Assembly: GCA_021836035.1 (NCBI GenBank) | Contig: JAKBJL010000005.1 | Span: forward strand, 1-43,347 | Direction of reading: 5' to 3' | Length of the DNA: 43,347 bases | From: a bacterium | GTDB taxonomy: Bacteria; Patescibacteriota; Microgenomatia; JAMCZE01 | Shown here: piece after piece, positions 5,777 through 41,088 of the stretch | Layout of the letters: every line of letters begins with the position of its first letter | Position numbering within the stretch: position 1 is the first letter of the stretch | Program-made: the position numbers and the translations under genes | The notes under the pieces: generated by a model | Told to the model about the DNA's origin: nothing | Seen by the model: only the letters and a program-made list of their open reading frames with translations | Database searches by the model: none

Positions 5777-8431
5777 ATGAAGAAATATTTCCGTTCGGCT
5801 GTCTTTAACTTTTCTTTTTTATTTCTACTTTACTTTGCTCTTCCCGTATCCGCCCAGAGCGCTCCGACAATTTCTTCCATCGCCGACAACCGCGCCGGTT
5901 ACCCTAACAGCCAAATTCCGAAATATGAAAAACTGGAAATTTCCTTCCGGGTCAATACTTCCTCTAACAATCCCTTTTTCCCCTATGACGCCGCGCCGCC
6001 GCCGGGAATAACCGCGGGCCAGGGGATAACGGTTAACGCGGTTTTTACGGCGCCTTCAGGCAAGGTAAGCACCCAACCGGCCTTTTATTACCAGGATTTT
6101 GATTACCAGGTGAAATCCGGACAGGATTGGTTTTACCCGACGGATAGCTTTCCCTGGAAGGTCCGTTTTACTCCCAATGAGGAGGGAAATTGGAAATATG
6201 TATTGTCGGCTCAGGATGCCGGCGGTACCACGTCGGCCGCGGAGCAAACGTTTTCCGTAGCTCCGTCTGCCAACCGTGGTTTTGTCCGGGTCAGCAAAAA
6301 TGACTCCCGCTATTTTGAATATGATGACGGAACCTATTTCCCCGGTCTTTCCTACAATATGAACTATTCCAATATTGATTGGACTAACCCCGTGCAGGCT
6401 AATCAGGCAAATTTCCAGAAAATGGGCCAAAATGGTATTCAGATTATCCGTCACTGGCTATCTCAGTGGGGTATATTTTCTTCAAATGACGTTTCCTGGG
6501 GCTCTGCCCGGAACGGTCCCGATGACGCGGGTATTACCGTTCCCTATATTTCCCAGACAGTAAACGGAGTTAATGTCCAAACCAGGGTAGCGCCCTATCC
6601 CGAGAGCGATGTGGCCATGCGGGCAGAGAATTATTGGGATCCGTGCATGTTCCTCTCCGGTTGGCAGCAGAGTATTCCGATGAAACCTAATACTAAATAC
6701 CATATTTTTATCCGCTACCTGATTCCTCCGGGTCAATATCTCAGCGGAGGAAAACTAACCGCCCGGTTTTCCGGATGGCTCGATAACCCACAATGCGCCG
6801 ACGCGACCAGCGGGGCTTTTTTGCCCTTAACCGGCGATGTCTCTCCCGATACCTCTCCGACAGACAACAACGGCAATGCGGTCTGGTCAATTTTGGAGGG
6901 AACTTTTAATAGCCAGAACCCGCCCTTTAATAATGTTTCGGTGATGCCCCGTTTTTATCTGTCGATTACCGGTCTGGATAATACTAATAGACCCTCTACC
7001 CCGACGGGGGCCGGAGAAAAAATCTTCATCGACCGGGTGGAAATTCGGGAAGACCCAAACGACAGCACCGACCCCTGCCGGAGAGCGGCCGGTTCCGGCT
7101 CGCTGTTCTTAGTCAGCTCGAGGAATTGCGGTATCAACGTTATCGGGAAACCCTGGATGTCCCATTATCAATATGTCGACCAACAACAGTCAGCCCGTTT
7201 TGACAAGGTAGTAGACCTGGCGAAACAAAACGGAGTTTATCTGAAGCTGGTAGTTTTGGAAAAAAACGAATATATCAGTAACCGTACCGATTATAACGGC
7301 AATACCATTCTGGATGGCCAGCCGGCTTGCAGTCAAAACCCGATTCCTCCCGGAACGGAATGTCCGGGAAACCGGTGGTTTTACGGAAATTGGCGATCCA
7401 TGACTAAAATCCGCTGGCTGCAAACCGCCTGGTTTAGGTATCTACAGGCCCGCTGGGGATATTCTCCCAATATTCATTCCTGGGAACTTGTTAACGAGGG
7501 CGATCCCTGGAACGGGCTGCATTATAGTTTGGCTGATGAAATGGCCAAATATATGCATCAGTTCGGCGCAGATTCCCATCTGGCGACGACCTCTTTCTGG
7601 CATTCTTTCCCCAAAGCGAATTTCTGGGCTAATAGTAACTACCCGAATCCGGATTACGCCGATGTCTACCGCTATATTTTTAACGACCAGGCAACTGCCG
7701 TGGACATCGGCGGAAACAATATTGCCGTGGCGCCGCTGGGTGACTATACGGATACAGCGGCGGAAGTACAGAAGCTTAGTATGCTTTTCGGAGCTAAACA
7801 GCAATATGGCGTGAATAAACCGGTGATGAGGGGAGAAACAGGTTTTGTGCTGGCGGGTAATACCGACGGTTGGGACCCGAACCTTGTTAATAAAGATTTA
7901 TCCGGTATCTGGTTATATAACTATATTTGGGCAGGAATAAATCCCGGCGGCCTGATTGAGTCCTATTGGTACGACCGTCCTCATATCTGGAATGACTCTT
8001 CGTATTATGGCCGTATCTTTGACCATCGCGATATTTACGGTACCTATTACCGTTTCATCAAAGACGTACCCCTGTCTAACGGCAAATATGTCGATGCGGC
8101 GGCTACCGTTACCGATCCTAACCTGCGGGTCTGGGGACAAAAAGATACCCCCGACGGTAAAGCCCACCTCTGGATAGCCAATCCCGCCCATACCTGGAGT
8201 AACGTGGTAAACAAGGTGACTATTGCTCCCATTTCCGCAACTATTACCTTAACCGGCTTTACTCCCAACAAAAGCTATCCTCTGGAGTGGTGGGATACCT
8301 ATTCCGGAGCTCCGTCGTCAACTACCAGTGCCGTAACCGACGGAAACGGAAATTTGACGTTTTCCGAACTTCCGATAGTGCCGTTAAAATCGGTACCTAC
8401 CAACCGGGAACTTTTACCCCCGAAGATTTAA
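5777..8431 (+). CDS. secreted multi-domain glycoside hydrolase-like protein (clan GH-A / GH5-like catalytic core after an N-terminal beta-sandwich domain); C-terminus probably frameshifted
   Basis: A signal peptide is present (MKKYFRSAVFNFSFLFLLYFALPVSAQS). The N-terminal YEKLEISF...NPFFPYD resembles DUF5060-type domains, from memory. HSWELVNEGDP looks like a clan GH-A acid/base NE motif, and VMRGETGF is a candidate nucleophile. Confidence 0.65.
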   Translation: MKKYFRSAVFNFSFLFLLYFALPVSAQSAPTISSIADNRAGYPNSQIPKYEKLEISFRVNTSSNNPFFPYDAAPPPGITAGQGITVNAVFTAPSGKVSTQPAFYYQDFDYQVKSGQDWFYPTDSFPWKVRFTPNEEGNWKYVLSAQDAGGTTSAAEQTFSVAPSANRGFVRVSKNDSRYFEYDDGTYFPGLSYNMNYSNIDWTNPVQANQANFQKMGQNGIQIIRHWLSQWGIFSSNDVSWGSARNGPDDAGITVPYISQTVNGVNVQTRVAPYPESDVAMRAENYWDPCMFLSGWQQSIPMKPNTKYHIFIRYLIPPGQYLSGGKLTARFSGWLDNPQCADATSGAFLPLTGDVSPDTSPTDNNGNAVWSILEGTFNSQNPPFNNVSVMPRFYLSITGLDNTNRPSTPTGAGEKIFIDRVEIREDPNDSTDPCRRAAGSGSLFLVSSRNCGINVIGKPWMSHYQYVDQQQSARFDKVVDLAKQNGVYLKLVVLEKNEYISNRTDYNGNTILDGQPACSQNPIPPGTECPGNRWFYGNWRSMTKIRWLQTAWFRYLQARWGYSPNIHSWELVNEGDPWNGLHYSLADEMAKYMHQFGADSHLATTSFWHSFPKANFWANSNYPNPDYADVYRYIFNDQATAVDIGGNNIAVAPLGDYTDTAAEVQKLSMLFGAKQQYGVNKPVMRGETGFVLAGNTDGWDPNLVNKDLSGIWLYNYIWAGINPGGLIESYWYDRPHIWNDSSYYGRIFDHRDIYGTYYRFIKDVPLSNGKYVDAAATVTDPNLRVWGQKDTPDGKAHLWIANPAHTWSNVVNKVTIAPISATITLTGFTPNKSYPLEWWDTYSGAPSSTTSAVTDGNGNLTFSELPIVPLKSVPTNRELLPPKI

Positions 8432-20661: not shown

Positions 20662-21306
20662 TTAATTTTTTAACGGATTAAAAGTAACACGGGTTTGCCG
20701 GGAAAATTTGTTACTCAACGGGTTAAGGGAGCGCTGCCATATCTCCGGATCATTAATAGCTATATCCGTAAGTTCCGGAAGAATTATGGTTTTTTTTGTA
20801 AAACCAGCCCTGCTGTTTAAATTGTCGGTAATATAGGGAACACAGCTGCCCAGGGTTTCGCCAAAGGCGTTAGTTTCCACGTCTTTGGTTATTTTAAAAC
20901 CACGGCGCTTGGCCTCTTCCAAAACCGGATTTATGGCCCTGGGGCTATAGGTAACGTCGATATCGTGCGGGATAACCAACATCCGGGATCCCAAAATCTT
21001 TTGCATTTCTAATAGCGTCCGCGCATAATCTTTATTTTCATTAATATCCTCTTCCAACACCTCCGCGGTAGCATGAGTAAAAACGAAAAGGAGCTCGTCA
21101 TTTCTCATACCTTTGGCTTTTTCCACATACTTCCCCAGCAGCAATCTGTATTTAACCCGGGTAAAAGAATCCATTGCCTGCAAATCAACCTTATCCGGAT
21201 CCGTTAAATACCCCGGATGAATTAGGAAATTAATCCGGCTTACCCTAACCGGTAAATGTTCCCCGGATTCCCCACCTATAGGCCGTTTAAGTAAGTTTTC
21301 TACCAT
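20662..21306 (-). CDS. hypothetical alpha/beta protein with weak isochorismatase/cysteine-hydrolase-like features
   Basis: Beta-strand-like segments alternate (RINFLIHPGY, LLFVFTH, RMLVIPHD, KKTIILPE). NAFGETLGSCVPYIT resembles the G-x-x-T-x-x-CV catalytic-Cys motif of that family. This is motif-level evidence only. Confidence 0.45.
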   Translation of the reverse strand: MVENLLKRPIGGESGEHLPVRVSRINFLIHPGYLTDPDKVDLQAMDSFTRVKYRLLLGKYVEKAKGMRNDELLFVFTHATAEVLEEDINENKDYARTLLEMQKILGSRMLVIPHDIDVTYSPRAINPVLEEAKRRGFKITKDVETNAFGETLGSCVPYITDNLNSRAGFTKKTIILPELTDIAINDPEIWQRSLNPLSNKFSRQTRVTFNPLKN

Positions 21307-21608: not shown

Positions 21609-22694
21609 ATGCCAGAACAACATTGGGAATACGTCGCGGTTGCCGGTAAAAGAAACGGAAAGCCAAATTTTCCCCCCCTCAACCGGGAGCAACAAAAACT
21701 AATCCCCGCCTTTGACGATGCCTTAAATGTAGCAGCCCAATCTGAAGTTTCTCACCCTATCTATTCCGGCTACCGCGTCAAGGAGTCAATTTCCGGGTTG
21801 CCTGCGGGGAACATTTCTTATGGCAAAAAAAGGGCTTTACACGGAGAGGAAGTTGCCGTAGCCAACATCTATTCAAAAGAGGGTATTGTCTCTGCTTCCG
21901 AATTGCCCTTAATTCTCAGAAATATTGCCACTTATAATCCCGCTATTGCCCTCCCCAAAATAATTCCCAATCTGATATTAGCAATTATTGCCCACGACCC
22001 GGATGGGATGGCTAAGCCTTGCGGTAATTGCCTGGATTTGCTGAGAGACAAATTAGGGCGGTCCCTCAACGTCGTTTTCGGGGCCAGTGGCGGAGGCGAA
22101 GCGAAAGTGGCAAAATTGGGCGATTTCCTTTTTGAAGTCGGCCGGGAGCACCGCATCAGCTTAAGAGCAAGAGAAGGACCTAATTTAATCGCCACCCTGG
22201 CCGGGCAAACCTTCAGCGAAGGAACAAGGCTGACCGATGACGCCTATGTTTCTAAAGCCGAAGCGCTTTCCCGCAATTACAACGCATTAGTCGTTACGAA
22301 TAAAGGCAAATACTACGGCGGCTATGAATGCCTCTGTGATTATCACCCGATTTATGCCGGCCGGGATGCTATCCGCCAGGCCCGGCGGGCCCATGACTAT
22401 TTTCTGCGCTACGCACTTTTTACAGCCCCCGGCCCGGGAAATAATCCTCCGGATATAATGTACATGGATCGGCAGCATTTAATGGAGTACGCTCTTATTG
22501 GAGACCTGGAAACAGGCAGAGAAGGTGATAAACCTGTTTATCTCGCTTCCATAGACCCGCAAAGGAAAGCCGTCACCGGTTTATGGCAAACAAGCGTTAG
22601 AGAATTTCTGCCGTTCCCTTTTAGCCCGATTAATTTTGGTGAGGAATTTGTTTCTCATTTCAAAGAATATTATCGCCGGCGGAAACGGTTTTAG
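21609..22694 (+). CDS. divergent two-domain cytidine/deoxycytidylate-deaminase-fold protein
   Basis: The N-terminal half has LHGEEVAVANIY (an H-x-E zinc/catalytic motif) and KPCGNCLDLL (a PCxxC zinc motif). The C-terminal half lacks these motifs but ends VREFLPFPFSP, like the LLP-x-x-F end of cytidine deaminases. This resembles the E. coli Cdd catalytic + pseudo-domain layout. Confidence 0.55.
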   Translation: MPEQHWEYVAVAGKRNGKPNFPPLNREQQKLIPAFDDALNVAAQSEVSHPIYSGYRVKESISGLPAGNISYGKKRALHGEEVAVANIYSKEGIVSASELPLILRNIATYNPAIALPKIIPNLILAIIAHDPDGMAKPCGNCLDLLRDKLGRSLNVVFGASGGGEAKVAKLGDFLFEVGREHRISLRAREGPNLIATLAGQTFSEGTRLTDDAYVSKAEALSRNYNALVVTNKGKYYGGYECLCDYHPIYAGRDAIRQARRAHDYFLRYALFTAPGPGNNPPDIMYMDRQHLMEYALIGDLETGREGDKPVYLASIDPQRKAVTGLWQTSVREFLPFPFSPINFGEEFVSHFKEYYRRRKRF

Positions 22695-22771: not shown

Positions 22772-23926
22772 TTACCCAAACAGGACACCATAACGATGAT
22801 CCAAATCAGATAAGTGCGAATGAAAGCTCGTCGAAACGGTATTATGCCCATATCTTTTTATCCATTGTTTGGTGTCTTTAATAAAATATGATATTTCTTC
22901 GGACGGCACACCAGAAAGTCGAGTGTCCTCATAGTAAATTCGTCCAAGTACGGTTCTTCGACATTTGGGACAACTTCCACAAGTGTTTTCACTTAAACAT
23001 GCTTTTGCCAATTCCGGAGTTTTCCGCTCCCATTTACGCCGGTTGTTGGCAGCCCAGCATTTCCGGGTAAAGCAGTTTTGAACTAAAGGAAGAATAGTGA
23101 TATTTAACTTTTTTTCCAGGTTTAGGATTTCCCCTACCGTTTCAATATCACCGGGATATTCTCCGGTTACATTAATATCCAACCCGGCATCCGATAGCAA
23201 ATTATTGAACAAATTCCACGCGCCTTTGGATTCACTGAAATCACCCTCATCCGGCGAATCTACAAACCCGCCCTCTACAAGCACTTCTTTAATTCCATAA
23301 CGATAGGCCGTTAAAACTACTGTTGCCGCGACCAGTAGATCTCTAACTCTCATAACATCCAATCCCTTAAGTTCCGAACTGTTGATTACTTTAACTTCCG
23401 TAAAGGGAACATTCCATTGTTTACATTGATAGCTGCTTCTCTCAGCTTCATCTCCGGGCAATACACGGTTGAGGTTTCTAAGATGAACCGCTCTGACCAT
23501 TTCTCCACGGGCTAAATGGCTGGCAAGCCGGAAACATGAATCCAATCCACCGGAATGAGAATTGACGATATATGCGCCGTCATTTAGCTTGGATTCGTTT
23601 GAATGAAATTCAAGGTTTAATCTATTGCTGTTTGCAGAAATTTTTGGAGGGCGGTATCCATAATAATCGTAAAGAGCGTTTACTAAATCGGTATAATTGA
23701 CCGGAAAATTTGTTTCAATAATCCGGGGAAAATAAGCGGATACTAAATGCGACAAGGCAACAGTGCGCCACAAGTCCCGGATAACTTTTGGCTGATCAGA
23801 TAAAGATCTTTCTGGATCGACTATCGCGATCTGTTCGTTGTGTTTTTTTCCTTTAAGTTTCAGACTAAACGGATTCTTCGGTGAAATATTAACCTCGCAT
23901 TTATCCGCTTGTTCGATTCTGGTCAT
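22772..23926 (-). CDS. QueC-family PP-loop ATP pyrophosphatase-like protein with a ~120 aa N-terminal extension
   Basis: It has VNSHSGGLDSCFRLA (the SGGxDS PP-loop). The C-terminal Cys cluster is QNCFTRKC...CGSCPKCRR, as in the QueC zinc site. Confidence 0.7.
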   Translation of the reverse strand: MTRIEQADKCEVNISPKNPFSLKLKGKKHNEQIAIVDPERSLSDQPKVIRDLWRTVALSHLVSAYFPRIIETNFPVNYTDLVNALYDYYGYRPPKISANSNRLNLEFHSNESKLNDGAYIVNSHSGGLDSCFRLASHLARGEMVRAVHLRNLNRVLPGDEAERSSYQCKQWNVPFTEVKVINSSELKGLDVMRVRDLLVAATVVLTAYRYGIKEVLVEGGFVDSPDEGDFSESKGAWNLFNNLLSDAGLDINVTGEYPGDIETVGEILNLEKKLNITILPLVQNCFTRKCWAANNRRKWERKTPELAKACLSENTCGSCPKCRRTVLGRIYYEDTRLSGVPSEEISYFIKDTKQWIKRYGHNTVSTSFHSHLSDLDHRYGVLFG

Positions 23927-23932
23927 GGCCGG

Positions 23933-23961
23933 ATTCTAGCAACGGCCAATTTCCGTGTCAA
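23933..23961 (-). promoter_or_regulatory. consensus promoter of the QueC-like gene with leaderless geometry
   Basis: The minus strand reads TTGACA (23961-23956), a 17-nt spacer, TAGAAT (23938-23933), then 6 nt (CCGGCC) and the ATG at 23926. Confidence 0.65.
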
Positions 23962-24048
23962 CTAATATAGCGATTTGACAATCCAAACTATTAAACCGGG
24001 TCATGGCGCTTTTTTAATCCCACAGCAAGGGAAGCAACTCAGGGAAGC

Positions 24049-24076
24049 AAAAAAACATTCCGAACTTTAGTTCGGA
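24049..24076 (-). terminator. Rho-independent terminator of the signal-peptidase-like gene
   Basis: The minus strand reads UCCGAACU-AA-AGUUCGGA followed by AUGUUUUUUUG. It overlaps repeat copy B. Confidence 0.65.
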
Positions 24077-24095
24077 TAGTGGCATTTTTTGAAGT
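24069..24095. repeat. copy B of the 27-nt direct repeat
   Basis: AGTTCGGATAGTGGCATTTTTTGAAGT. See copy A for the match. Confidence 0.7.
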
Positions 24096-24183
24096 GTCAG
24101 CAATATAGGGTACCACATTAATTTTATCTATCAGCCCCAAATGGAAGGTATTCGAACATTTTGTGCTCAATTAGTGGTATCTT

Positions 24184-24735
24184 TTAATACCTGAAGGCTA
24201 TTTTTCCGACAATATCCTGTTTACCTATGAAACCTAAACTACGTGAATCAATACTATTATTTCTGTTGTCGCCCATCATAAAATAGCTATTATCGGGAAT
24301 TGTAATTTCTTGGCCTTCGTCTAAAATCTTTGGTCCTCCCGTATCCTCAATTTTTCCAGTTGTTTCAGATATATCTATAATCGCACTTTTATTGGCTGTC
24401 GTTGTTACAGTACCAGGTTGTAGATAACTTTCAGCTAGTACCGCGCCATTCAGATACACTTTACCGTTTTGTATTTTTATTTTGTCTCCTGATAGAGCAA
24501 TTATTCTAGCAATACCTGAATAATGGGGATTCTGAGTGTAGCCAAAAGTTACAACATCACCTCGTTGGGGCGAAGAAAAAGTATATGCTAGTTTATTCAC
24601 AAGAAATCTCTCACCACTCTTATAAGTTGGTTCCATTCCAGGTCCATTTATTGATACAGGTTTGAAAGTGACAAATAGGGTTACTAATAAACCAGCTAAT
24701 ACTCCAATAACCACGAACTGTAAAATCTTTGACAT
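24184..24735 (-). CDS. type I signal peptidase (S26) homologue lacking the Ser/Lys catalytic dyad; predicted pseudo-peptidase
   Basis: It has an N-terminal TM segment. Box B reads NGPGMEPTY where SM-x-PT is expected. Box C RGDVVTF is intact. Box D reads GIARIIALSGD where Y/F-I/V-K-R-x-x-G-x-PGD is expected. Box E MMGDNRNNSIDSR is intact. Confidence 0.75.
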   Translation of the reverse strand: MSKILQFVVIGVLAGLLVTLFVTFKPVSINGPGMEPTYKSGERFLVNKLAYTFSSPQRGDVVTFGYTQNPHYSGIARIIALSGDKIKIQNGKVYLNGAVLAESYLQPGTVTTTANKSAIIDISETTGKIEDTGGPKILDEGQEITIPDNSYFMMGDNRNNSIDSRSLGFIGKQDIVGKIAFRY

Positions 24736-24741
24736 AATTTA

Positions 24742-24770
24742 AATCTAACAGGAGAAAATGTTAGTTACAA
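24742..24770 (-). promoter_or_regulatory. promoter of the signal-peptidase-like gene with leaderless geometry
   Basis: The minus strand reads TTGTAA (24770-24765), a 17-nt spacer, TAGATT (24747-24742), then 6 nt and the ATG at 24735. Confidence 0.55.
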
Positions 24771-24996
24771 GTAGTGTGTTATATAGAGATGGCTATGAGA
24801 AAAGGCTATTTGAATTTTCAGCAGACATGGTTGGAATCGAGCTTGCTCTTCTTTAAATACCATGTGGTCGTGGATGAAGGCAAAACTTGCCGAAACGGCT
24901 AATCTAGCTAGTCGATGGGTGAGTCGGTTTGGCAGTGTTTTATGCGGAAATCGTTCGCGCCTATGTGTGGTACTAAAATGTAGGTCTTAGACTATA

Positions 24997-27864
24997 TTAA
25001 CGCCCTAAATCCTTATCAAGGTGGCAATGTTTATATTTCTTCCCACTCCCGCACCAGCAGGGATCGTTTCTCCCCGGCTTTTTAATTCCCGGCGCGGAAT
25101 TCCCTACGGGTAAGCCGCTCGTCCTTGAACTTGAACTTGCACTTTGTTTTATTTGCTGTGCTTCCTCTTTTACTCCTGCCTCGATATTTTCAATCTGCGC
25201 CGCATTCGTAGTCGCCCGCTGCATTTGGGCGATCTGCTCAGGCGTCGCGACGGCAATTTTATAAATCCGGTGGACGATTTCGTAATCAACAGAGGCAATC
25301 AATTTTTCAAACATTGTAAAGGCTTCCGCCTTATATTCAACCAACGGATCCCTTTGGGCGTAACCCCGCAGCCCTATGCCTTCGCGCAAATCGTCGATTT
25401 CCTCGAGATGTTCCATCCATAAAGCGTCTATTACCCGAAGCATTTCCTGTTGTTCAATATAACGGGTAATTTTCCCGCCCAATTGTTTCTCTCTTTGTTC
25501 ATAAATATCATGCGCAATTTTTTGTAATAAAGGGCCTAGGGATGAGGAGCTGGCAGCTAGTTGAACAACGATTTGCTTTTTCGAATTATCATCAAAGGGA
25601 ATGATCGTCGAAAATTCTTCAATGATTTTTTCCGTGCCGTTTTTATCCCCTGTTTCGACTACCCCATATTGTTCTTTGCCGCCGGAATTGATAGCCACCA
25701 GATTTTCTATTTCCTTATCAATTTTGGCTAAAATTTCTTCTTTCAGCCAATGACCATTTTCCGCGGCCTCCCCATTCCCGTCTTCCGTTTCCATTTCCTT
25801 CCCCTCGCTTGCCCCGAGTGAAATCGCAGGGTCAGCGGCTAGCCCCGTCTCATTAGCCCCCCTATTTAAAGCGCTCAACACTTTCCGTCTTAATCCATAG
25901 ATGATCTCCCTCTGCTTGTTCATCACGTCGTCATATTCCAAGAGGTGCTTGCGGGAATCAAAATTAAATTGCTCTACTTTCGATTGAGCCTGCTCAATCG
26001 ACTTGCTGACCATACCGTGTTCCAGGGGCTGGTCTTCGGGAATATTAAAAAGGGTCATGAGCCGCGCTACCTGTTCCCCGCCGAAAAGGCGCATAACGTC
26101 ATCGTCCAGCGCGACAAAAAACCGGCTAGAACCGGGGTCCCCCTGGCGCCCCGCCCGGCCCCGCAGCTGGTTATCAATCCGTCGCGACTCATGCCGTTCC
26201 GTGCCGATCACATGCAGGCCGCCAAGCGTGACTACTTCGTCATGGTCCTTCTGCCAGGCTTTCCACTCCGGACTGCCGATCAGCGGACGCCCGTCTGCCT
26301 GTTTGGGCGTTACCCCGCCTAAAATAATATCGACGCCGCGGCCGGCCATGTTGGTCGCGACGGTAACGGCGCCGCGCTTTCCCGCCTGGGAAATAATCAG
26401 GGCCTCCTTTTCGTGCTGTTTGGCATTTAAAACCTGGAAAGGAATACCTTTGTGGCGCAGAAACTGGGAAATAATCTCATTTTTCTCGATAGAGGTGGTT
26501 CCGATTAAAACCGGCCGGCCGATTTTATGCATTTCCTCAATTTCCCGGACGACCGCGGAATATTTCGCCCTCTGCGATTTATAAACCTGGTCGGTAGAAT
26601 CATTCCGAACCATCTGCTTATTAGTCGGAATGGCAATTACTTCCAGATTGTAAATTTTATGAAACTCTTCCGCCTCCGTCGCCGCGGTCCCCGTCATCCC
26701 GGCCAACTTTTCGTATTTCCTAAAATAATTTTGCAGGGAAATAGTCGCCAAAGTCCTGCTTTCCTGCTGGATGGGAACACCCTCTTTGGCTTCGACAGCC
26801 TGGTGAATTCCTTCGCTCCAGCGCCGTCCCGGCATCAGTCTCCCGGTAAATTCGTCAACAATTATCACCTCGTTGTCGCGGACTATATAATCTTTTTCGC
26901 GGTGGTATAGGGTTCTGGCTTTCAAAGCCGCTTCAACATGATGAACCGTCGCGAAATCTTTTTCGTAAATATCTTTAGATCCTAACATCTGCTCAATTTT
27001 GCCGATCCCGTGGTCGGTAAGGTTGGCAGTATGCATTTTTTCGTCAACGACATAATCCAGTTTCGCCGTTAAACCTTCCACCAAACGCGCATATTCGTAA
27101 TATTTCTGTGTCGGCTCCGCGTCGGGGGCGGAAATAATATGCGGCGTCCGGGCTTCATCGATTAAAACCGAGTCCACTTCGTCAACTATCGCGTAATGGA
27201 AATCGCGCTGGACCAGCTCCGCTTCTTCGCGGGCCATATTGTCCCGGAGATAGTCAAAACCGAACTCGGAATTAATACCGTAGGTAATATCCGCACCATA
27301 GGCTTCTTTGCGGGATACCGGACGCAGGTGGCGCAGGCGCCAATCGGGCGCGTTTTCATCCGTAAATTCCGGATCATAAACGAAAGAGGCTTCGTGAATA
27401 ATCGCCGCGCAGGACAATCCCAGAATATGATAAATCGGGCCCATCCAGCCGACCCCAACCCGCGCCAGGTAATCGTTAACGGTAACCAGGTGTGCGCCTT
27501 TGCCGGTCAGGGCATTTAAATAAAGTGGCATGGAGGCGGTTAAAGTCTTCCCTTCCCCCGTTTTTTGTTCAGCGATTTTTCCCTGGTGCAAAGCAATTGC
27601 GGCCATCACCTGGACATCAAAATGGCGCTCGTTATTAACCCGGGCGCTGGCTTCCCGGACCAGGGCATAAGCCTCGGGGAGCAGCCCGTCGAGAGAACCG
27701 CCCTTAGCCAGTTTCTCTTTCAACTTCGCTGTTCTTTTGGCAAAATCGGCTTCTTTCAGCTTCTTGACCTCTTTTTCCCAAGCATTAACCTCCGTTACCA
27801 ACGGCATTAACTTTTGAACCTGGCGTTCATTGCTGTCAATAATTTTCCCAATAAAATCCAGCAT
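24997..27864 (-). CDS. secA: preprotein translocase ATPase SecA
   Basis: It has TGEGKTLTASMPLYLNAL, DEVDSVLIDEARTP, TNMAGRGVDI and the C-terminal zinc motif CWCGSGKKYKHCH. Confidence 0.98.
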   Translation of the reverse strand: MLDFIGKIIDSNERQVQKLMPLVTEVNAWEKEVKKLKEADFAKRTAKLKEKLAKGGSLDGLLPEAYALVREASARVNNERHFDVQVMAAIALHQGKIAEQKTGEGKTLTASMPLYLNALTGKGAHLVTVNDYLARVGVGWMGPIYHILGLSCAAIIHEASFVYDPEFTDENAPDWRLRHLRPVSRKEAYGADITYGINSEFGFDYLRDNMAREEAELVQRDFHYAIVDEVDSVLIDEARTPHIISAPDAEPTQKYYEYARLVEGLTAKLDYVVDEKMHTANLTDHGIGKIEQMLGSKDIYEKDFATVHHVEAALKARTLYHREKDYIVRDNEVIIVDEFTGRLMPGRRWSEGIHQAVEAKEGVPIQQESRTLATISLQNYFRKYEKLAGMTGTAATEAEEFHKIYNLEVIAIPTNKQMVRNDSTDQVYKSQRAKYSAVVREIEEMHKIGRPVLIGTTSIEKNEIISQFLRHKGIPFQVLNAKQHEKEALIISQAGKRGAVTVATNMAGRGVDIILGGVTPKQADGRPLIGSPEWKAWQKDHDEVVTLGGLHVIGTERHESRRIDNQLRGRAGRQGDPGSSRFFVALDDDVMRLFGGEQVARLMTLFNIPEDQPLEHGMVSKSIEQAQSKVEQFNFDSRKHLLEYDDVMNKQREIIYGLRRKVLSALNRGANETGLAADPAISLGASEGKEMETEDGNGEAAENGHWLKEEILAKIDKEIENLVAINSGGKEQYGVVETGDKNGTEKIIEEFSTIIPFDDNSKKQIVVQLAASSSSLGPLLQKIAHDIYEQREKQLGGKITRYIEQQEMLRVIDALWMEHLEEIDDLREGIGLRGYAQRDPLVEYKAEAFTMFEKLIASVDYEIVHRIYKIAVATPEQIAQMQRATTNAAQIENIEAGVKEEAQQIKQSASSSSRTSGLPVGNSAPGIKKPGRNDPCWCGSGKKYKHCHLDKDLGR

Positions 27865-28049
27865 AAATTCCCTTCTTCAGGTTTTATTTTATCACTTATC
27901 GGCGCTCCCGAGACGGCCGAAACCGCGATTTTAAATCTTTAACCTCCTGCCGTCAACAAATTAGTCCCTTGTAATCCGCTCCCGATAAGTTTAAAAATTT
28001 ATTGCACACAATTTACTCTGCCCACACATCTTATGCCTACACTTGGGAT

Positions 28050-29222
28050 ATGGCATTAAGCGAAGAAGAAATTGCCAGGCACAAGGCGGAAAGCGACGCC
28101 GAATTCCAAAGGCTAATTGTCAGGGGAGAAGAAAAAGACGGCTCCCAAATCCCGGATTCCCCCCCGGAAAATAAGCACCCCAAAAAAGAAAAAATTCCCT
28201 TTATTAAAAGGCTTCTGGGTAAAGATCGTATTTATATCAGCAGCGTCATCGAGAAAATGATTGAGATCACCGACGAAAATAAGCCGCCGGCAGATAATCC
28301 CTCGGGAGAGCTAAAGAAACGACGGACAAGAAGCAAAAGGGAAGAAATGCTCTCTAAGAAAGGCGGCTTTATAGGCCACGATATTATTCCCTTAATCGTA
28401 ATTGCTGCCCAAAACCCCCGTATCTCCCTTTCTTCTCTGGAAAAAACGTTCCCTTCAAAAACTCCCACGGAAATTAAAAAATTGAAAAGCCGGATTGAAG
28501 CGGCCCTAAAACCAGAGGAATCGGTAACCGATTTACCGGTGGATATTTTAACCCTCATTGAATCCTCAAAGGATATTAAAGGTTATGATGAATGGTACTG
28601 GAGCCGGTACGAAAACAGGAAAGACAACAAAAAACAAAAGGCATGGGAAAAACAACGCGCCGCGGGGCAAGATACTTTTCTGGATATCAACGCTTATTAT
28701 CAGAAACCGCCCCGTGATATTTTGGTCCGCTCGGCGGGAGAAATTGCCCGGCAGGTAATTTATCACCCCCTGCTTTCTGATCCCGAAACCCGCCTAGAAA
28801 TCGAGCGCTCGCAGATTACCCCTACCGCTACCGATTTCTTTATTTCCAGCCGCGATGATATTTTATTAATTGATCGGGACGGCAATCGGTTTCCGCTGGA
28901 GCTGAAACCGCATCCGGTCGGCGGGAAAAGGGTAAGAATCGAAACTTTTGCCGCTCTTAAAATTAACGAGGCGGCAAAAAGAGGCGGATTTAATCGGGTG
29001 GTTAACATCTATCCGCGGGGAGAAGAAAGTTATCACATTGACGTTGCCAAATCGCTCATCGAAGGCACTTTTGTCCCGCCCGGGATTTATCATGTTATTT
29101 TGGGTCTGAATTTTAACGGAGAAGCGTATTATCCCCAGGTTATCCTGGACCCGCCGACGTTGGCAGTATTGGAAGAAACTTTTACGGAAGCCTTAAAGCG
29201 CCTCACCGGCGCCGACCTCTGA
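28050..29222 (+). CDS. hypothetical protein; C-terminal region has a possible PD-(D/E)xK-like signature
   Basis: I prefer the ATG at 28050 (MALSEEEIARH) over the TTG at 28002. It has a charged, low-complexity N-terminal third. The C-terminal ATDFFISSRDDILLIDRDGNRFPLELKP fits D...E-x-K spacing, which is speculative. Confidence 0.5.
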   Translation: MALSEEEIARHKAESDAEFQRLIVRGEEKDGSQIPDSPPENKHPKKEKIPFIKRLLGKDRIYISSVIEKMIEITDENKPPADNPSGELKKRRTRSKREEMLSKKGGFIGHDIIPLIVIAAQNPRISLSSLEKTFPSKTPTEIKKLKSRIEAALKPEESVTDLPVDILTLIESSKDIKGYDEWYWSRYENRKDNKKQKAWEKQRAAGQDTFLDINAYYQKPPRDILVRSAGEIARQVIYHPLLSDPETRLEIERSQITPTATDFFISSRDDILLIDRDGNRFPLELKPHPVGGKRVRIETFAALKINEAAKRGGFNRVVNIYPRGEESYHIDVAKSLIEGTFVPPGIYHVILGLNFNGEAYYPQVILDPPTLAVLEETFTEALKRLTGADL

Positions 29223-29247: not shown

Positions 29248-29784
29248 ATGCAGACCATGGCGGAAAAAGAACCCAGGATAATCAATATGGGCCTTCCGAT
29301 CCCCGAAGGGTACGAAGTGGCTAAGGTTAGTGTTAGGCTTAAAAAGCGCTCCCCGCGGATATCCGAACAAAACCTAAGAGAGACAGAACGGTATGTGAAT
29401 AAAATAATTGAAGGAAAAGTGGAAACTGCTTCTTTTTATGCAGATGTTCAGGATTATATCGCCAACAACGAACAACCGCTAGTAAACTTAATAGGGGGCG
29501 CGAAAAGGGACACCGATGTGAATATCGAGGATACCTTCGATCTGAATGAGCCGGAGCAAAGACAAAATTTAGGTCGGAAATTAGATAGCTTGGCTATCTC
29601 CCCAAAAGAATTTAACCACAAAGTAGCAGAAGATTTAAAAGCCACCGAAAATTGGTCAGATGCCTGGAGCGCGCGACGAACCGCTCTCGCCCGCCTCGTT
29701 TATAAAAGACTCAAAAAGGATAATCCGCAAGAAACTCCCCAAAACCTCCAGCATAACATCCGCCGCCTGACTGTCCGCAAATAA
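29248..29784 (+). CDS. hypothetical protein (the start may be the ATG at 29257)
   Basis: A 178 aa ORF with no competing ORF and no motif I recognise. Confidence 0.5.
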   Translation: MQTMAEKEPRIINMGLPIPEGYEVAKVSVRLKKRSPRISEQNLRETERYVNKIIEGKVETASFYADVQDYIANNEQPLVNLIGGAKRDTDVNIEDTFDLNEPEQRQNLGRKLDSLAISPKEFNHKVAEDLKATENWSDAWSARRTALARLVYKRLKKDNPQETPQNLQHNIRRLTVRK

Positions 29785-30585: not shown

Positions 30586-31570
30586 AACGGGCCAGAGCGA
30601 TATGGACAATTTCCTCTAAAAATTGCGGGTAGGCCAGGCCCGCTGCTTTTGCCGAACGGGAAGCGCCGTCTTCCAACCCGATGCCCGGATTGGCGTTTAC
30701 TTCCAAAATATACGGTACGCCGGATTTATCCAGGCGGATATCTACCCGACCGTAATCGCGGCACCCGGTCAAACGGTAAGCCGAAAGGGCGGTATCCGCG
30801 ACTTTTTTTCTGACCTGTTCCGCTAAATCCGCCGGGCAAATACCGTTGGTTTCTTTATATTTCCAACTATCAATCTCCCATTTGGCCGCGAAATCCACTA
30901 CTTTATAATGATTTTTAAATGAAGGGCCGAAAATTATTTCGGAAATAGGCAATACCCTCGCCTGTTCCCCGTTTCCCAAAACCGTTACATTTAGTTCCCG
31001 CCCCTCAATGTATTCTTCAACCAACACCGGATCATCATATTCATCCCTGATTATCTGCATCTGTTTTTCGGCTGCCGGGCAGGTTTTTACTACAGAGGCC
31101 GCCCCAATACCCAAACTGGAATCTTCCGTAGCGGGTTTAACCACCAGGGGAAAAGATAATGCGGGGTCTAACCGCTCGCAACCAGAAAAAACCTGGTATT
31201 TCGGTGTCGGAATATCATGGGCGATTAATAATTTTTTAGTGGCTACTTTTTCCGTTGTCAAAATAATCGCTTTGGCGTCGGAACCGCTGAAGGGCTTGCC
31301 GCTTCTTTCCAGAAAAGCCGCCACATCGGCTTCGCTCTTGGCCATACCGCCGATACCAAAAGCGGAATTGAAATAAAAATCAGTGGGGTGGTTCTTTAGC
31401 CGCTTCACCGATTGTTCGTCAATCGCCAACAAATCCACAGTGTTCCCCAAGCTTTGTAAACCCCGGGCGATAGCCTCCGCGGTTTTTACCGTATCTTCAT
31501 CGGCCAAAATATCCAGGGGATTACCCACAGCCACTTTTCTGACCACATTGTAGGTCACGGTAATTTTCAT
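30569..31570 (-). CDS. D-alanine--D-alanine ligase-family ATP-grasp enzyme (substrate unknown)
   Basis: It has PLVVKPATEDSSLGI, VLVEEYIEGRELNVTVLG and GCRDYGRVDIRLDKSGVPYILEVNANPG. Its start overlaps the upstream stop as ATGA. Confidence 0.8.
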   Translation of the reverse strand: MKITVTYNVVRKVAVGNPLDILADEDTVKTAEAIARGLQSLGNTVDLLAIDEQSVKRLKNHPTDFYFNSAFGIGGMAKSEADVAAFLERSGKPFSGSDAKAIILTTEKVATKKLLIAHDIPTPKYQVFSGCERLDPALSFPLVVKPATEDSSLGIGAASVVKTCPAAEKQMQIIRDEYDDPVLVEEYIEGRELNVTVLGNGEQARVLPISEIIFGPSFKNHYKVVDFAAKWEIDSWKYKETNGICPADLAEQVRKKVADTALSAYRLTGCRDYGRVDIRLDKSGVPYILEVNANPGIGLEDGASRSAKAAGLAYPQFLEEIVHIALARYENKS

Positions 31571-32931
31571 TGCAGTTCCGTAAGCTCTTCCCGATAAATT
31601 TTGAGGAGAGGATTTTTCAACTCGTAAGGTAAGGTGCTGGTAGTATGAATACCGAAAAAACGCTCCCGCAATTCCCCTTCCCGGGCCCGGGCTTCAGCTA
31701 AATAAGTTTTGGCAAATCTTTTCATTAAAGCACCCTTAACTCCCCTACGGTAAGATAAAAGAAAAGCCAGGAGTTGTTCGTCACGGTCCAACCCGCTTTG
31801 ATCCGTCGGGCTGCTTTTGGGGACATCTCCGGGAAACAAAGTAAACAAATTTATTTTTCGCTCCGAGAGCATATTTTCATTAAATCCTACCCTATGGGGA
31901 CTGATCCCCAGGCCGGTGAGGTAAACGTAAATCCGGGCGCATTTACTGCACTTGCCGCACCATCTTTTGGTTTTGGCGACACTCTCTTCCTGAGGACAGG
32001 AAGTTTGGTATTTCGCAATAGCCGGATAACGCGAGTGCAGAATTTTTATGATCGCTAAATCATTCAGCGGCTCAATCAGGCTGGAAAAGACCGTATTGCT
32101 CCCTAACATTCTTACCAGATTGTTTTGGAAAAGCAGCCAATTGCGGTTTTGTTCAAAAGTGGGATTAATAATAAAACCCTCCTTATCGGTATAAGTACTG
32201 TTGCACTCCTGTTCATGAGACCAAAAGGTAAACCGGGCCCTCGAGCCGAAAACAAAAGGCAATAATAAAAGTGTATATTGGGTCATGAGAAGATCCCAGC
32301 CCCACCAATTACCGAAAGTCTGCCGCAGTCTTCCGGCAGAGACGGGAAAAAATTGAACATCAACCCCGAATTCGTTTAAAAAACGTTCTGCCAGTTTTTT
32401 CTTATGCCGGTTTTCGTAGGGGCTGCGCGGCTCGCGGAAAAATAGCGGATAGGGTTGAATTCCCAATTCCCGGGTCAGGGCAAAGGTTAATAAACTATCC
32501 TTGCCGAAAGAAAAAGGAATCACCGCGCGGTTTTTGGTATTGCGATTCACATGGGCAAACCGCGTCAAACGCGGACGCCCGGTAAATTGGATACTTAAAT
32601 GACGGTTGTAAAAAAGACGCAACAGATCAGAGGTACGAACATTTTCTTCTCCTAATAAAGTCGTCTCTCCTAAGGAATAAATCATGCCCTCAAAAAAGAA
32701 GGGCTCAAATTGCGGCGGCGGAAAATTATAAACTATATGCTTATGGCCGTTTAAACAAAGATGCATTGTCAGCGAATAAGCCAAAGCATCGGCGAAATTC
32801 TGATGATAAACCTCCGGAAATTCTCTCCAAATCGAAATAGGGTAGGTAATTTGGTAAGTTTTTCTTTCTAAGGAGATTTCGACACCGGTAGGAATTACTT
32901 TCCGAAATACTTTTGTTGCGTTCTGTTTCAT
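31567..32931 (-). CDS. PP-loop-like (adenine nucleotide alpha-hydrolase superfamily) protein with a C-terminal CxxCxxC knuckle
   Basis: It has AVIPFSFGKDSLLTFAL (an SxGxDS variant of SGGxDS) and WCGKCSKCARIY. It is the first gene of a three-gene coupled operon. Confidence 0.55.
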   Translation of the reverse strand: MKQNATKVFRKVIPTGVEISLERKTYQITYPISIWREFPEVYHQNFADALAYSLTMHLCLNGHKHIVYNFPPPQFEPFFFEGMIYSLGETTLLGEENVRTSDLLRLFYNRHLSIQFTGRPRLTRFAHVNRNTKNRAVIPFSFGKDSLLTFALTRELGIQPYPLFFREPRSPYENRHKKKLAERFLNEFGVDVQFFPVSAGRLRQTFGNWWGWDLLMTQYTLLLLPFVFGSRARFTFWSHEQECNSTYTDKEGFIINPTFEQNRNWLLFQNNLVRMLGSNTVFSSLIEPLNDLAIIKILHSRYPAIAKYQTSCPQEESVAKTKRWCGKCSKCARIYVYLTGLGISPHRVGFNENMLSERKINLFTLFPGDVPKSSPTDQSGLDRDEQLLAFLLSYRRGVKGALMKRFAKTYLAEARAREGELRERFFGIHTTSTLPYELKNPLLKIYREELTELQ

Positions 32932-39839: not shown

Positions 39840-40124
39840 CAAATCCTCCTTAGTTTTGTAAGGACAACGCAAGCCGGGGCGCCCCGAAAAAATGTCTTTT
39901 GCTTATCCCCTTCTTTACTGAAAGCAGGGTAACGGACATCTAAAAGAAAGCTGTTTTAAAACTTCCCTCGTATGACAAGCGACAGGACCCTAAATTATAA
40001 TTGAATTTATTAAAAGATATCTACTGTTCCGGAAATGCTACTATATATAATGGGGAGTGGTTATTTTATGGCTTTTAGAATTTGGTTTCACCGCGAGTAC
40101 CGGTAGTAACGAAATAGAGAGCAG

Positions 40125-40484
40125 GTGATAAATACGTTTAGAAACTTATTAAACTTCTCTTATCAAAGAAATTTAATAGGGGCTGCGGGTTTTTATATAG
40201 CATATCTAGTATTATTATTGCTCGTCTTTATGATACTTGGGGCAATCACAGGATTAATCTTGCCAGGTGTTGCCTATGAGGCGGGCTTTCGTGTAGGTAA
40301 TATCGGAGCCATAATAATTTGTCCACTTTTATCATTTTTAATTTTAAAAGAAAAGAAATTATTAAATAATTTTGGCCTTATTATCTTGGCAATATTATCT
40401 GGTTTAATAGCAGTATTTGTTGGCGCGATAGGTGGCCTAATTCCGATAGCTTACCTAACAACAAGACCTACCAATACCAACTAA
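40125..40484 (+). CDS. hypothetical small membrane protein, very AT-rich (GTG start)
   Basis: It has three or four hydrophobic segments. My hand count gives about 27% GC over 40125-40184, against about 55% in secA. Confidence 0.45.
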   Translation: MINTFRNLLNFSYQRNLIGAAGFYIAYLVLLLLVFMILGAITGLILPGVAYEAGFRVGNIGAIIICPLLSFLILKEKKLLNNFGLIILAILSGLIAVFVGAIGGLIPIAYLTTRPTNTN

Positions 40485-41088
40485 TCATTATTACGTTGGG
40501 GAAGTAACAAATTGGTGGCAGCGGTAGTCTTTAAATATCAGTTGTGGCAAGAATAATCAAATACCCGCTTTGGAGTTTGGGTATTCGGCAACTGCCCCTG
40601 AGCAAAAGATCCGTGCCGCGGCCGCGGTAAAACAGGAATATACCAGGATATTTGATGGGGCAAAGGAAACCTTGCAAATAATGCAAAAGCCGTTTACATA
40701 AGGAGGCCAGTTATAATCATTAAGGCCTCAACAGCAAAAACGGTCTCGCATATAATGGCTCGCTTATTTTCTTTCGTTTTTGGTGGAATTGATAAAATTT
40801 ATCTAAATTGTTTTTCATTTTCCTCCGGTTTTATCCCCGACTATCCATAACCGAATCGGTTTTATTTACTCCCTCATGACAAGAACCCCAGGGGCTGTCA
40901 ATAATATATAAAAGCCAGGAATCGTTCTAGCCCTCCAATACCGCTTCAAAGAAGAAAACTAAAATCCCTTCCACCGAAAATATCTTTTACAGAACGGTTT
41001 AAAAGAATATCGATCATTAGGAGAAATACTTAATAGCCGGTTAGAAAACAAATTCCTTCCGGAATGAAACTGGTTCGAACCTTTAAAC

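Follow-up and report, generated by a model that had tools for sequence, protein, structure and literature searches.

What does a QueC-like enzyme do when its gene stands alone? The question is raised by a gene for a 384-residue protein on contig JAKBJL010000005.1 (assembly GCA_021836035.1), from a bacterium of the Microgenomatia in the Patescibacteriota; the whole stretch of 43,347 nucleotides is called the window here. The original prediction, made from the DNA letters, described a solitary QueC-family PP-loop protein with an N-terminal extension. We consider it likely that the protein is an early-branching member of an undescribed PP-loop family within the QueC structural clade, and that it acts as an ATP-dependent adenylating ligase on a substrate which is not a deazaguanine and is encoded elsewhere. 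The gene and its parts are listed below.

22772-23926, minus strand: complete gene of a stand-alone QueC-like PP-loop ATPase, 384 residues, ATG start, stop codon at 22772-22774 (list of open reading frames)
23573-23926, minus strand: N-terminal family-specific domain (N-domain), residues 1-118 (alignments A1 and A3, AlphaFold2 (AF2) models)
23075-23572, minus strand: Rossmann-like PP-loop core, residues 119-284, aligning with QueC residues 1 to about 175 (hhalign, Foldseek)
23537-23557, minus strand: PP-loop HSGGLDS, residues 124-130, the ATP pyrophosphate-binding motif (motif position)
22922-23074, minus strand: Cys4 subdomain, presumed to bind zinc, residues 285-335 (alignments, AF2 model)
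22961-22981, minus strand: zinc knuckle CGSCPKC, residues 316-322 (motif position)
22775-22921, minus strand: C-terminal helical extension, residues 336-384, with helices at 342-358 and 366-379 (AF2 model)

A search of 5.8 billion proteins returned 79 homologues with E values from 1e-109 to 1e-32, nearly all of 370-400 residues, covering 95-98% of the query at 39-48% identity. With 79 near-full-length homologues, the open reading frame (ORF) at 22772-23926 on the minus strand is no chance reading frame. The AF2 model of the whole protein had a mean predicted local distance difference test score (pLDDT) of 88.8 and a predicted template modelling score of 0.88.

The core of the protein is homologous to QueC

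When the AF2 model was compared with the PDB by Foldseek, the first match was the QatC structure 9y02_B (E 6e-8, 334 columns), followed by Bacillus subtilis QueC 3bl5 (2e-6), Cap9 9nto_B (1e-4) and the QueC of Erwinia. NAD synthetase, argininosuccinate synthase, LarE, TilS and YcfA were ranked lower. Against BFVD, the named top matches were mostly phage QueCs. A profile of 61 sequences, built from the core family and a wider group described below, was aligned by hhalign with a three-sequence QueC alignment (Escherichia coli, Erwinia and B. subtilis). The probability was 94.9% in local and 97.0% in global mode, with residues 117-342 of the query spanning QueC residues 1-226 or 1-231. Since this match covers the whole of QueC at 95-97% probability, the core is homologous to QueC. 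The same alignment places E. coli QueC (231 residues) 1-226 on query residues 117-342, in agreement with the earlier claim that the first 120 or so residues have no counterpart in QueC.

The original prediction had named TilS, LarE or an asparagine-synthetase-like family as placements that would speak against it. These were excluded, since QatC, QueC and Cap9 were the top structural matches and the matches to TilS, LarE and TtuA were local and below threshold. The NCBIfam TilS model gave 14.5 bits against a cut-off of 606, and the matches of relatives to LarE, TilS, MnmA and TtuA were confined to the PP-loop region and fell below the thresholds. TtuA, TilS, LarE, argininosuccinate synthase and NAD synthetase share with the protein the PP-loop Rossmann fold and adenylation chemistry, with weak local matches; in contrast to it, they have no C...CGxCxxC knuckle at the corresponding position. 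Matches to cytochrome c555 and TNFAIP8, which appeared in PDB sequence searches with the single sequence or the core profile, were dismissed as chance.

Among the QueC models, that of PADLOC reached E 0.026 with the window protein, and TIGR00364 gave no match at E<=1. Pfam QueC was matched by 30 of 65 relatives, three of which (P0100, P0162 and P0170) passed the PF06508 gathering score; P0100 was itself matched by the family profile at 3e-33. As judged from these comparisons, the core is homologous to QueC, and the protein is not an orthologue of QueC, QatC or Cap9. In place of the suggested phylogeny with QueC, QatC, Cap9, DpdC and Gat-QueC, for which the pairwise identity is 11-18%, a neighbour-joining tree was built within the family.

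Residues that read deazaguanine in QueC are not kept

The canonical signature of QueC consists of SGGxDS, YxQxHxxE, VPxRN, YPDC and C(x)8CxxCxxC, and Y35, R99, Y131 and Y189 are essential (PMC13329287). In Cap9 and QueC, 7-carboxy-7-deazaguanine (CDG) is read by the Tyr and Asp of YPDC, which stack on it (PMC13279940). We mapped these residues onto the family with two independent alignments, which gave the same mapping; the equivalences are based on sequence alignment and not on superposition.

Both motifs that had been taken as QueC hallmarks, SGGLDS and CGSCPKC, are present at the positions listed above. Six of the seven residues of HSGGLDS are invariant in the 38 core sequences (S125, G126, G127, D129 and S130 among them, each kept in 38/38), and L128 is Leu in 37 and Val in one. 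Other retained positions are E160 (QueC E42), R195-D196 (R99-N100), F230-S231 (F128-S129) and the CGxCxxC knuckle. The region of QueC Y35, Q37 and H39 maps to HLRNLN, in which H148, N151, L152 and N153 are invariant and L149 and R150 nearly so; Y35 corresponds to N151. At the position of Y131, Tyr is found in 28/38 sequences and Ser in the window protein, while the position of D133 is Pro or Gly, with Asp in 2/38. To the question whether the residues that bind preQ0 or CDG are conserved, the answer was negative, as the counterparts of Y35, Y131 and D133 are not kept. Since the residues that read CDG in QueC and Cap9 are missing, the activated substrate is most likely no deazaguanine, and CDG itself appears unlikely as the substrate.

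The protein could still be a true QueC (7-cyano-7-deazaguanine synthase) with accessory domains. Its core is homologous over the full length of QueC (PF06508 cluster 1; PDB 3BL5, 2PG3), with SGGxDS, the Cys4 site with CGxCxxC, and the counterparts of E42, R99 and F128-S129 kept; its Var3 loop is of similar length (about 15 residues, 13 in QueC), and one homologue, P0045, is named QueC in a JGI record. However, the protein lies below the Pfam, TIGR00364 and PADLOC QueC thresholds, missing every QueC model cut-off; neither Y35 and Y131, essential in experiments, nor the Asp that reads CDG is conserved, YxQxHxxE and YPDC being missing (PMC13329287, PMC13279940). It has 384 residues where QueC has about 222, and besides the core it carries the N-domain, 30 residues inserted into the Cys motif, and the C-terminal helices. 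No queD, queE, folE, tgt or queF was found in the window or in any locus examined. None of the approximately 35 ORFs scanned across the 43-kb window was a deazaguanine or queuosine gene, and an Rfam scan of the window had tRNA as its sole match, with no preQ1 riboswitch, which bears out the statement in the original prediction that no gene of this pathway lies nearby. We regard a true QueC as highly improbable.

Family-specific domains surround the core

In the AF2 model, the N-domain has the order three strands, short helix, long helix, strand, helix, strand, and residues 1-118 precede the first Rossmann strand at 120-123. Residues 50-100 have a pLDDT of 95-97 in the full-length model, and the domain modelled alone has 76.5. 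The 38-sequence alignment contains 52 invariant columns, of which eight (L52, H60, T72, N73, F74, Y86, Y89 and P94) are in the N-domain, and mean column identity is 55% in the N-domain versus 57% in the whole protein. No Met or other plausible start was found close to residue 119. The extension is therefore not an annotation artefact: it is conserved, no internal start lies near residue 119, and a promoter directly precedes the annotated ATG.

With the N-domain alone, Foldseek gave no PDB match at E<=1e-3, and QatC was not among the 50 matches listed. The weak resemblances were to RNase H-like or ribosomal protein S11-like topologies. As modelled, the N-domain is without a detectable structural relative. 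The substrate- or partner-recognition role proposed for the extension is plausible.

The Cys4 subdomain consists of C285, a 30-residue basic helical insert with R296 and W299, and C316-G-S-C319-P-K-C322-R-R; the AF2 model places helices at 289-302 and 304-310 within the insert. C285, C316, C319 and C322 are invariant in 38/38 sequences and also in the wider family. The median net charge of the subdomain is +5, with R296, R297, K298, K321, R323, R324 and R329 as conserved basic residues. The C-terminal extension, with conserved E344, F348, T352, W355, F368, H371 and L372, has no counterpart in QueC, to which the hhalign alignment stops at residue 342. Conserved Asn, His, Trp and Phe residues are abundant in the predicted pocket.

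Comparison with QatC and Cap9

QatC of the QatABCD system (PDB 9Y01/9Y02, 9ZEE, 9VLK) was the top structural match, and several features are shared. Each protein has three parts: an extension at the N-terminus, a Rossmann core like that of QueC, and additional helices at the C-terminus. In QatC, the N-terminal domain is termed Var1, and the C-terminal helical extension binds QatB. The spacer between the first and second Cys is lengthened in both (30 residues here, 19 in QatC and 8 in QueC), and CGxCxxC is followed by RR; the QatC motif is printed as C(x)19CGxCxxRR (PMC13329287). In both, the Tyr/Asp pair for reading CDG has been lost. Crystal structures of QatC exist, yet its reaction is unresolved to date (PMC13279940, PMC13376578). 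Cap9, the deazaguanylating ligase of type IV CBASS (cyclic-oligonucleotide-based antiphage signalling system; PDB 9NTO), was the third-best PDB family, with a QueC-like core and a Cys4 site, and the chemistry could plausibly be modelled on its ATP-dependent amide ligation to a macromolecule. Cap9 is minimal, at about 185 residues, carries the canonical CDG motifs and is encoded beside its CD-NTase substrate (PMC13329287). In contrast, the present protein has 384 residues, the CDG motifs are absent, and no CD-NTase was found in any locus.

These likenesses raise the possibility of an anti-phage enzyme of the QatC/Cap9 type, which would attach a carboxylate resembling a nucleobase to the N-terminus of a partner protein encoded elsewhere. 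In its favor are the rank of QatC among the structures, the QatC-like extensions at both ends, the long Cys1-Cys2 spacing with CGxCxxCRR, the shared loss of the Tyr/Asp pair, and six wider-family members that match the PADLOC QatC model, at the zinc knuckle only (best QatC-model E 1.6e-4). However, the QatC models NCBIfam NF041925 and PADLOC PDLC02214 gave no match to the window protein at E<=1. The strand and helix order of the N-domain differs from the four-stranded parallel sheet published for the QatC extension (PMC13376578), the isolated N-domain has no significant Foldseek match as described above, and the QatC N-domain motifs D63, D(x)4R(x)7WxR and DxWxxxF are absent. The Var3 loop of about 15 residues is QueC-like (13, with 12 in Cap9) rather than of the 27 residues found in QatC, and FSE stands at the place of the QatC T278/T280 region. 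No qatA (KAP ATPase), qatB, qatD (TatD), CD-NTase gene or other conserved neighbor was found in the window or about 50 related loci, whose flanks are housekeeping genes with local synteny and not defence islands. No relatives were found in viral contigs. An anti-phage role of this type is accordingly judged improbable.

Proposed reaction and substrate

The preferred reading of a stand-alone adenylating ligase would work as follows, by analogy with QueC, Cap9 and other PP-loop enzymes. ATP-Mg would be bound at the PP-loop, and a carboxylate (or carbonyl oxygen) of the substrate would be adenylated with release of pyrophosphate. An amine or ammonia would then displace AMP to form an amide-type bond. 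The adenylation chemistry of QueC and Cap9 is summarised in PMC13376578. The 384-residue protein has neither a glutaminase domain nor a free catalytic cysteine, and a three-Cys Fe-S pattern is absent too, which makes an amide ligase or ammonia-dependent amidotransferase likelier than a sulfurtransferase. The recognition site would probably be formed by the extra domains together with the Cys4 subdomain's conserved basic surface; these features and the lack of a linked gene suggest that the target is a constitutive cellular component encoded elsewhere. Our best guess is a macromolecule or nucleotide-bearing molecule, with RNA slightly favored over a protein terminus; a small metabolite is also possible.

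Several observations weigh against this reading. The significant hhalign result needs the wider family and the shallow three-sequence QueC alignment: the 38 core sequences alone gave a probability of 1.9%, and the core-family profile alone retrieved no PP-loop protein from the PDB. The single protein matched Pfam QueC only, at 14.8 bits (E 0.02) against a gathering score of 22; the term "QueC-family" in the original prediction thus holds at the level of the superfamily and fails at that of the family. The equivalences with QueC residues, and the position of the N-domain relative to the active site, come from sequence alignment only. The pI of the whole protein is about 8.1, weak support for a nucleic acid as substrate. 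Finally, of 81 positions with at least 95% conservation among the other 37 sequences, the window copy deviates at 12, compared with a median of 1 and a maximum of 4 for other members. These deviations include the K155-G156-N157 loop, H229, Y233 and D257, and the window copy may differ from the rest of the family in specificity or activity.

Two specific versions of the ligase explanation were weighed. In the first, the protein would be a small-molecule amide ligase or ammonia-dependent amidotransferase of salvage or cell-envelope metabolism, the extra domains being structural only. The QueC-superfamily branches of LarE, GMP synthase, the WbpG-type sugar amidotransferases and the nitrile synthetases use small molecules (PMC13329287; PDB matches), the pocket appears rich in conserved Asn, His, Trp and Phe, and murJ or ddl lies near some loci. 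However, pathway genes are linked in no locus, no glutaminase partner was found, and the envelope-gene neighbors reflect synteny within one subclade only. We hold this version to be possible, although on balance unlikely.

In the second, the protein would modify RNA as a housekeeping PP-loop enzyme, much as TilS, TtcA or GAT-QueC do: it would adenylate a tRNA or rRNA base, and the N-domain and basic Cys4 insert would bind the RNA. Many tRNA-modification genes also stand alone, and genes for translation (aminoacyl-tRNA synthetases, LepA, YchF, IF-2) abound in the flanks. The conserved basic patch, the RNA-associated character of the weak N-domain resemblances (RNase H-like, S11-like), and the matches of the A2 profile to TtuA, TilS, MnmA and NcsA in the PP-loop region point the same way. 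However, none of those similarities is significant outside the PP-loop, and no recognised RNA-binding domain (THUMP, PUA or the TilS C-terminal domain) is present. The rarity of the family, at least 21 loci in 185,579 species genomes, argues against a universal modification, neither an Fe site nor a catalytic Cys is left free for thiolation by the four-Cys ligation, and the overall pI is moderate. This version is doubtful, and we rate it as unlikely.

We also consider, with similar reserve, that the protein might be a housekeeping counterpart of QatC and Cap9: a stand-alone QueC-derived ligase of ultra-small Patescibacteria that would join a carboxylate other than a deazaguanine to a protein terminus or RNA base, with the N-domain supplying part of the active site or a surface for target recognition. 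We put this forward tentatively, as a minority possibility.

A literature search found no papers on the family, and nothing relevant on queuosine or QueC-like proteins in Patescibacteria. Because its members score below the Pfam threshold, the family was out of reach of the 2026 survey of PF06508. The family is a new, elaborated branch of a known enzyme superfamily and no new kind of system. Recent work has shown that CBASS and Qat defence reuse the QueC scaffold to conjugate proteins with nucleobases, and a third elaborated lineage, standing alone among housekeeping genes in hosts with genomes of about 1 Mb, widens the known range of the fold. Hosts of this type are thought to be without most nucleotide and cofactor biosynthesis. 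As a simpler system of one gene, the family also lends itself to the question of which substrates other than CDG are activated by elaborated QueC-like enzymes. If the substrate were a macromolecule, the Candidate Phyla Radiation would have a new pathway of post-translational or RNA modification, with the QueC scaffold recruited for macromolecule modification outside phage defence; if the substrate were a metabolite, the enzyme would be a routine addition to the PP-loop amidoligases.

Distribution of the family and the window copy

A profile search of 1.84 billion cluster representatives found 96 relatives (clusters). Three tiers of relatives were distinguished: the core family, a wider group of 360-400 residues with the same architecture, and distant proteins of 320-360 residues. 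The wider group (alignment A5) contains 23 cluster representatives that are 24-37% identical to their first member and keep the architecture. Named family members come from Microgenomates and other Patescibacteria, and the hosts of the core loci are Collierbacteria, Woesebacteria, Shapirobacteria and further Microgenomates. Almost all named members are annotated as "hypothetical protein", the JGI record mentioned above being the one named QueC. In the collection of species genomes, the 21 loci are a lower bound, since the scan requires exact peptide patterns. A phage origin of the gene was considered and rejected, as the search of viral contigs found no relatives.

The window copy is the most divergent member, with at most 48% identity to others over the aligned part and 46% for full-length matches. 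In the neighbour-joining tree all other core members together formed its sister group, and the wider group lay outside both. The SecA encoded in the window is 72% identical to a Patescibacteria SecA and 63-67% identical to Gottesmanbacteria SecA, which makes the host a member of the Microgenomates-type Candidate Phyla Radiation, and the tree position of the window copy agrees with the distance of its host from Collier-, Woese- and Shapirobacteria. Decay to a pseudogene was judged unlikely: the ORF is intact and retains 52/52 family-invariant residues, the gene has a strong promoter, and the deep branch fits the host. From its sequence, the window copy is read as a deep-branching orthologue and not as a decaying gene.

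Some observations on individual members were made. A Shapirobacteria metagenome-assembled genome, JAQVSW01 (L006, L020), encodes two family paralogues, which share 46% and 39% identity with the window protein. In two loci the homologue is split into two ORFs, in L016 at 5950-7131 (247 and 135 residues) and in L049 at 5980-7071 (71 and 274 residues), which indicates a frameshift, an assembly error or a pseudogene. In P0162 (905 residues) and P0170 (987 residues), the domain that passes the Pfam QueC threshold is N-terminal and is followed by more than 600 residues without a Pfam match. The metagenome-assembled genomes of L009, L011, L015, L016, L018 and L022-L024 are titled uncultured Pseudomonadales or Gammaproteobacteria, yet they carry a Microgenomates-type gene in Microgenomates-like synteny, and these labels look like errors or placeholders.

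Transcription and genomic neighborhood

Two features upstream of the gene bear on its transcription.

23933-23961, minus strand: sigma-70-type promoter of the gene itself, TTGACA, 17 nucleotides, TGcTAGAAT, with 11/12 matches and an extended -10 element, ending 6 nucleotides before the ATG
24049-24076, minus strand: terminator-like hairpin with T-run, downstream of the signal-peptidase gene (sequence scan)

The upstream hairpin and the gene's own promoter make the QueC-like gene a separate transcription unit. Since the -10 element ends 6 nucleotides before the ATG, the predicted transcript starts on the start codon, giving a leaderless mRNA. Homologous loci were similar. When -10 elements and Shine-Dalgarno sequences were read by eye in 20 of them, an extended -10-like element (TGnTAnnnT) ended 6-7 nucleotides before the ATG in 12 and 10-11 nucleotides before it in 7 more, and no Shine-Dalgarno sequence was visible upstream in any. 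These upstream sequences suggest that throughout the Microgenomates the mRNAs of the family are leaderless or nearly so. Control by a riboswitch was rejected, as there was no Rfam match and the predicted transcript has no leader.

To characterize the surroundings, neighboring genes were clustered over 25 core loci (the window and 24 others) and 27 wider-family loci. The latter were those of at least 4 kb among 42 loci fetched after a metagenome scan with an 8-sequence alignment. The most widespread neighbor family occurred in at most 7/25 core loci and at most 5/27 wider-family loci. LepA, MurJ, YchF, CysRS, HrcA and a GIY-YIG protein, as read from the sequence, were shared among core loci, and GroES/GroEL (Pfam) lies downstream of the gene in two Collierbacteria. 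The neighbors held in common seem to reflect local synteny among close relatives. The immediate neighbors in the window recur in none of the related loci, and after clustering of both sets no conserved operon partner or substrate gene was left as a candidate. As far as its gene order indicates, the whole family is solitary and set in housekeeping surroundings, a poor fit with the operon-encoded QatC and Cap9 systems.

In the nearest relatives, whose SecA is 71-72% identical to that of the window, the synteny from GreA to SecA is kept. In L073 and L075 it breaks directly after SecA, with no QueC-like gene within 9 kb, and the contig of L074 stops just past SecA. The window segment 20212-24996 beyond SecA (signal peptidase, QueC-like protein, deaminase-like protein, a 214-residue ORF and PGA_cap) was not found within 9 kb in L073 and L075. 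This break in synteny after SecA places the QueC-like gene at the edge of a rearranged segment.

The gene convergent with the QueC-like gene, at 21609-22694 on the plus strand, is an ORF of 361 residues with a cytidine-deaminase-type zinc motif, HGEE followed after about 60 residues by PCGNC. It had no Pfam match at E<=1 and a weak match to NCBIfam cyt_deam_tetra (E 0.008), and from its motif it may be a divergent or double-domain deaminase. A functional link between the two genes was considered and rejected, as the deaminase-like gene is absent from the related core loci of the 25-locus set; a deaminase motif lies near a family gene in one wider-family lineage only, about 2 kb away. As none of the related loci contains the deaminase-like gene, it probably has no connection with the QueC-like gene.

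Elsewhere the window encodes IF-2, NusA, DnaK/DnaJ/GrpE/HrcA, GroEL, RNase HII, SecA, signal peptidase and Ddl, along with SerRS, a class II aminoacyl-tRNA synthetase, GreA and tRNA-Glu. Its GC content dips to 0.374-0.375 at 24001-25000 and 40001-41000 and is about 0.42-0.52 elsewhere. The 214-residue ORF at 20662-21306 on the minus strand had no Pfam, NCBIfam or PADLOC match and no homologue in the fetched loci. Three further ORFs, of 406 residues (28002-29222, plus strand), 178 residues (29248-29784, plus strand) and 454 residues (31567-32931, minus strand), were without a Pfam match; the 454-residue protein is 72% identical to the product of the gene at the syntenic position in L074.

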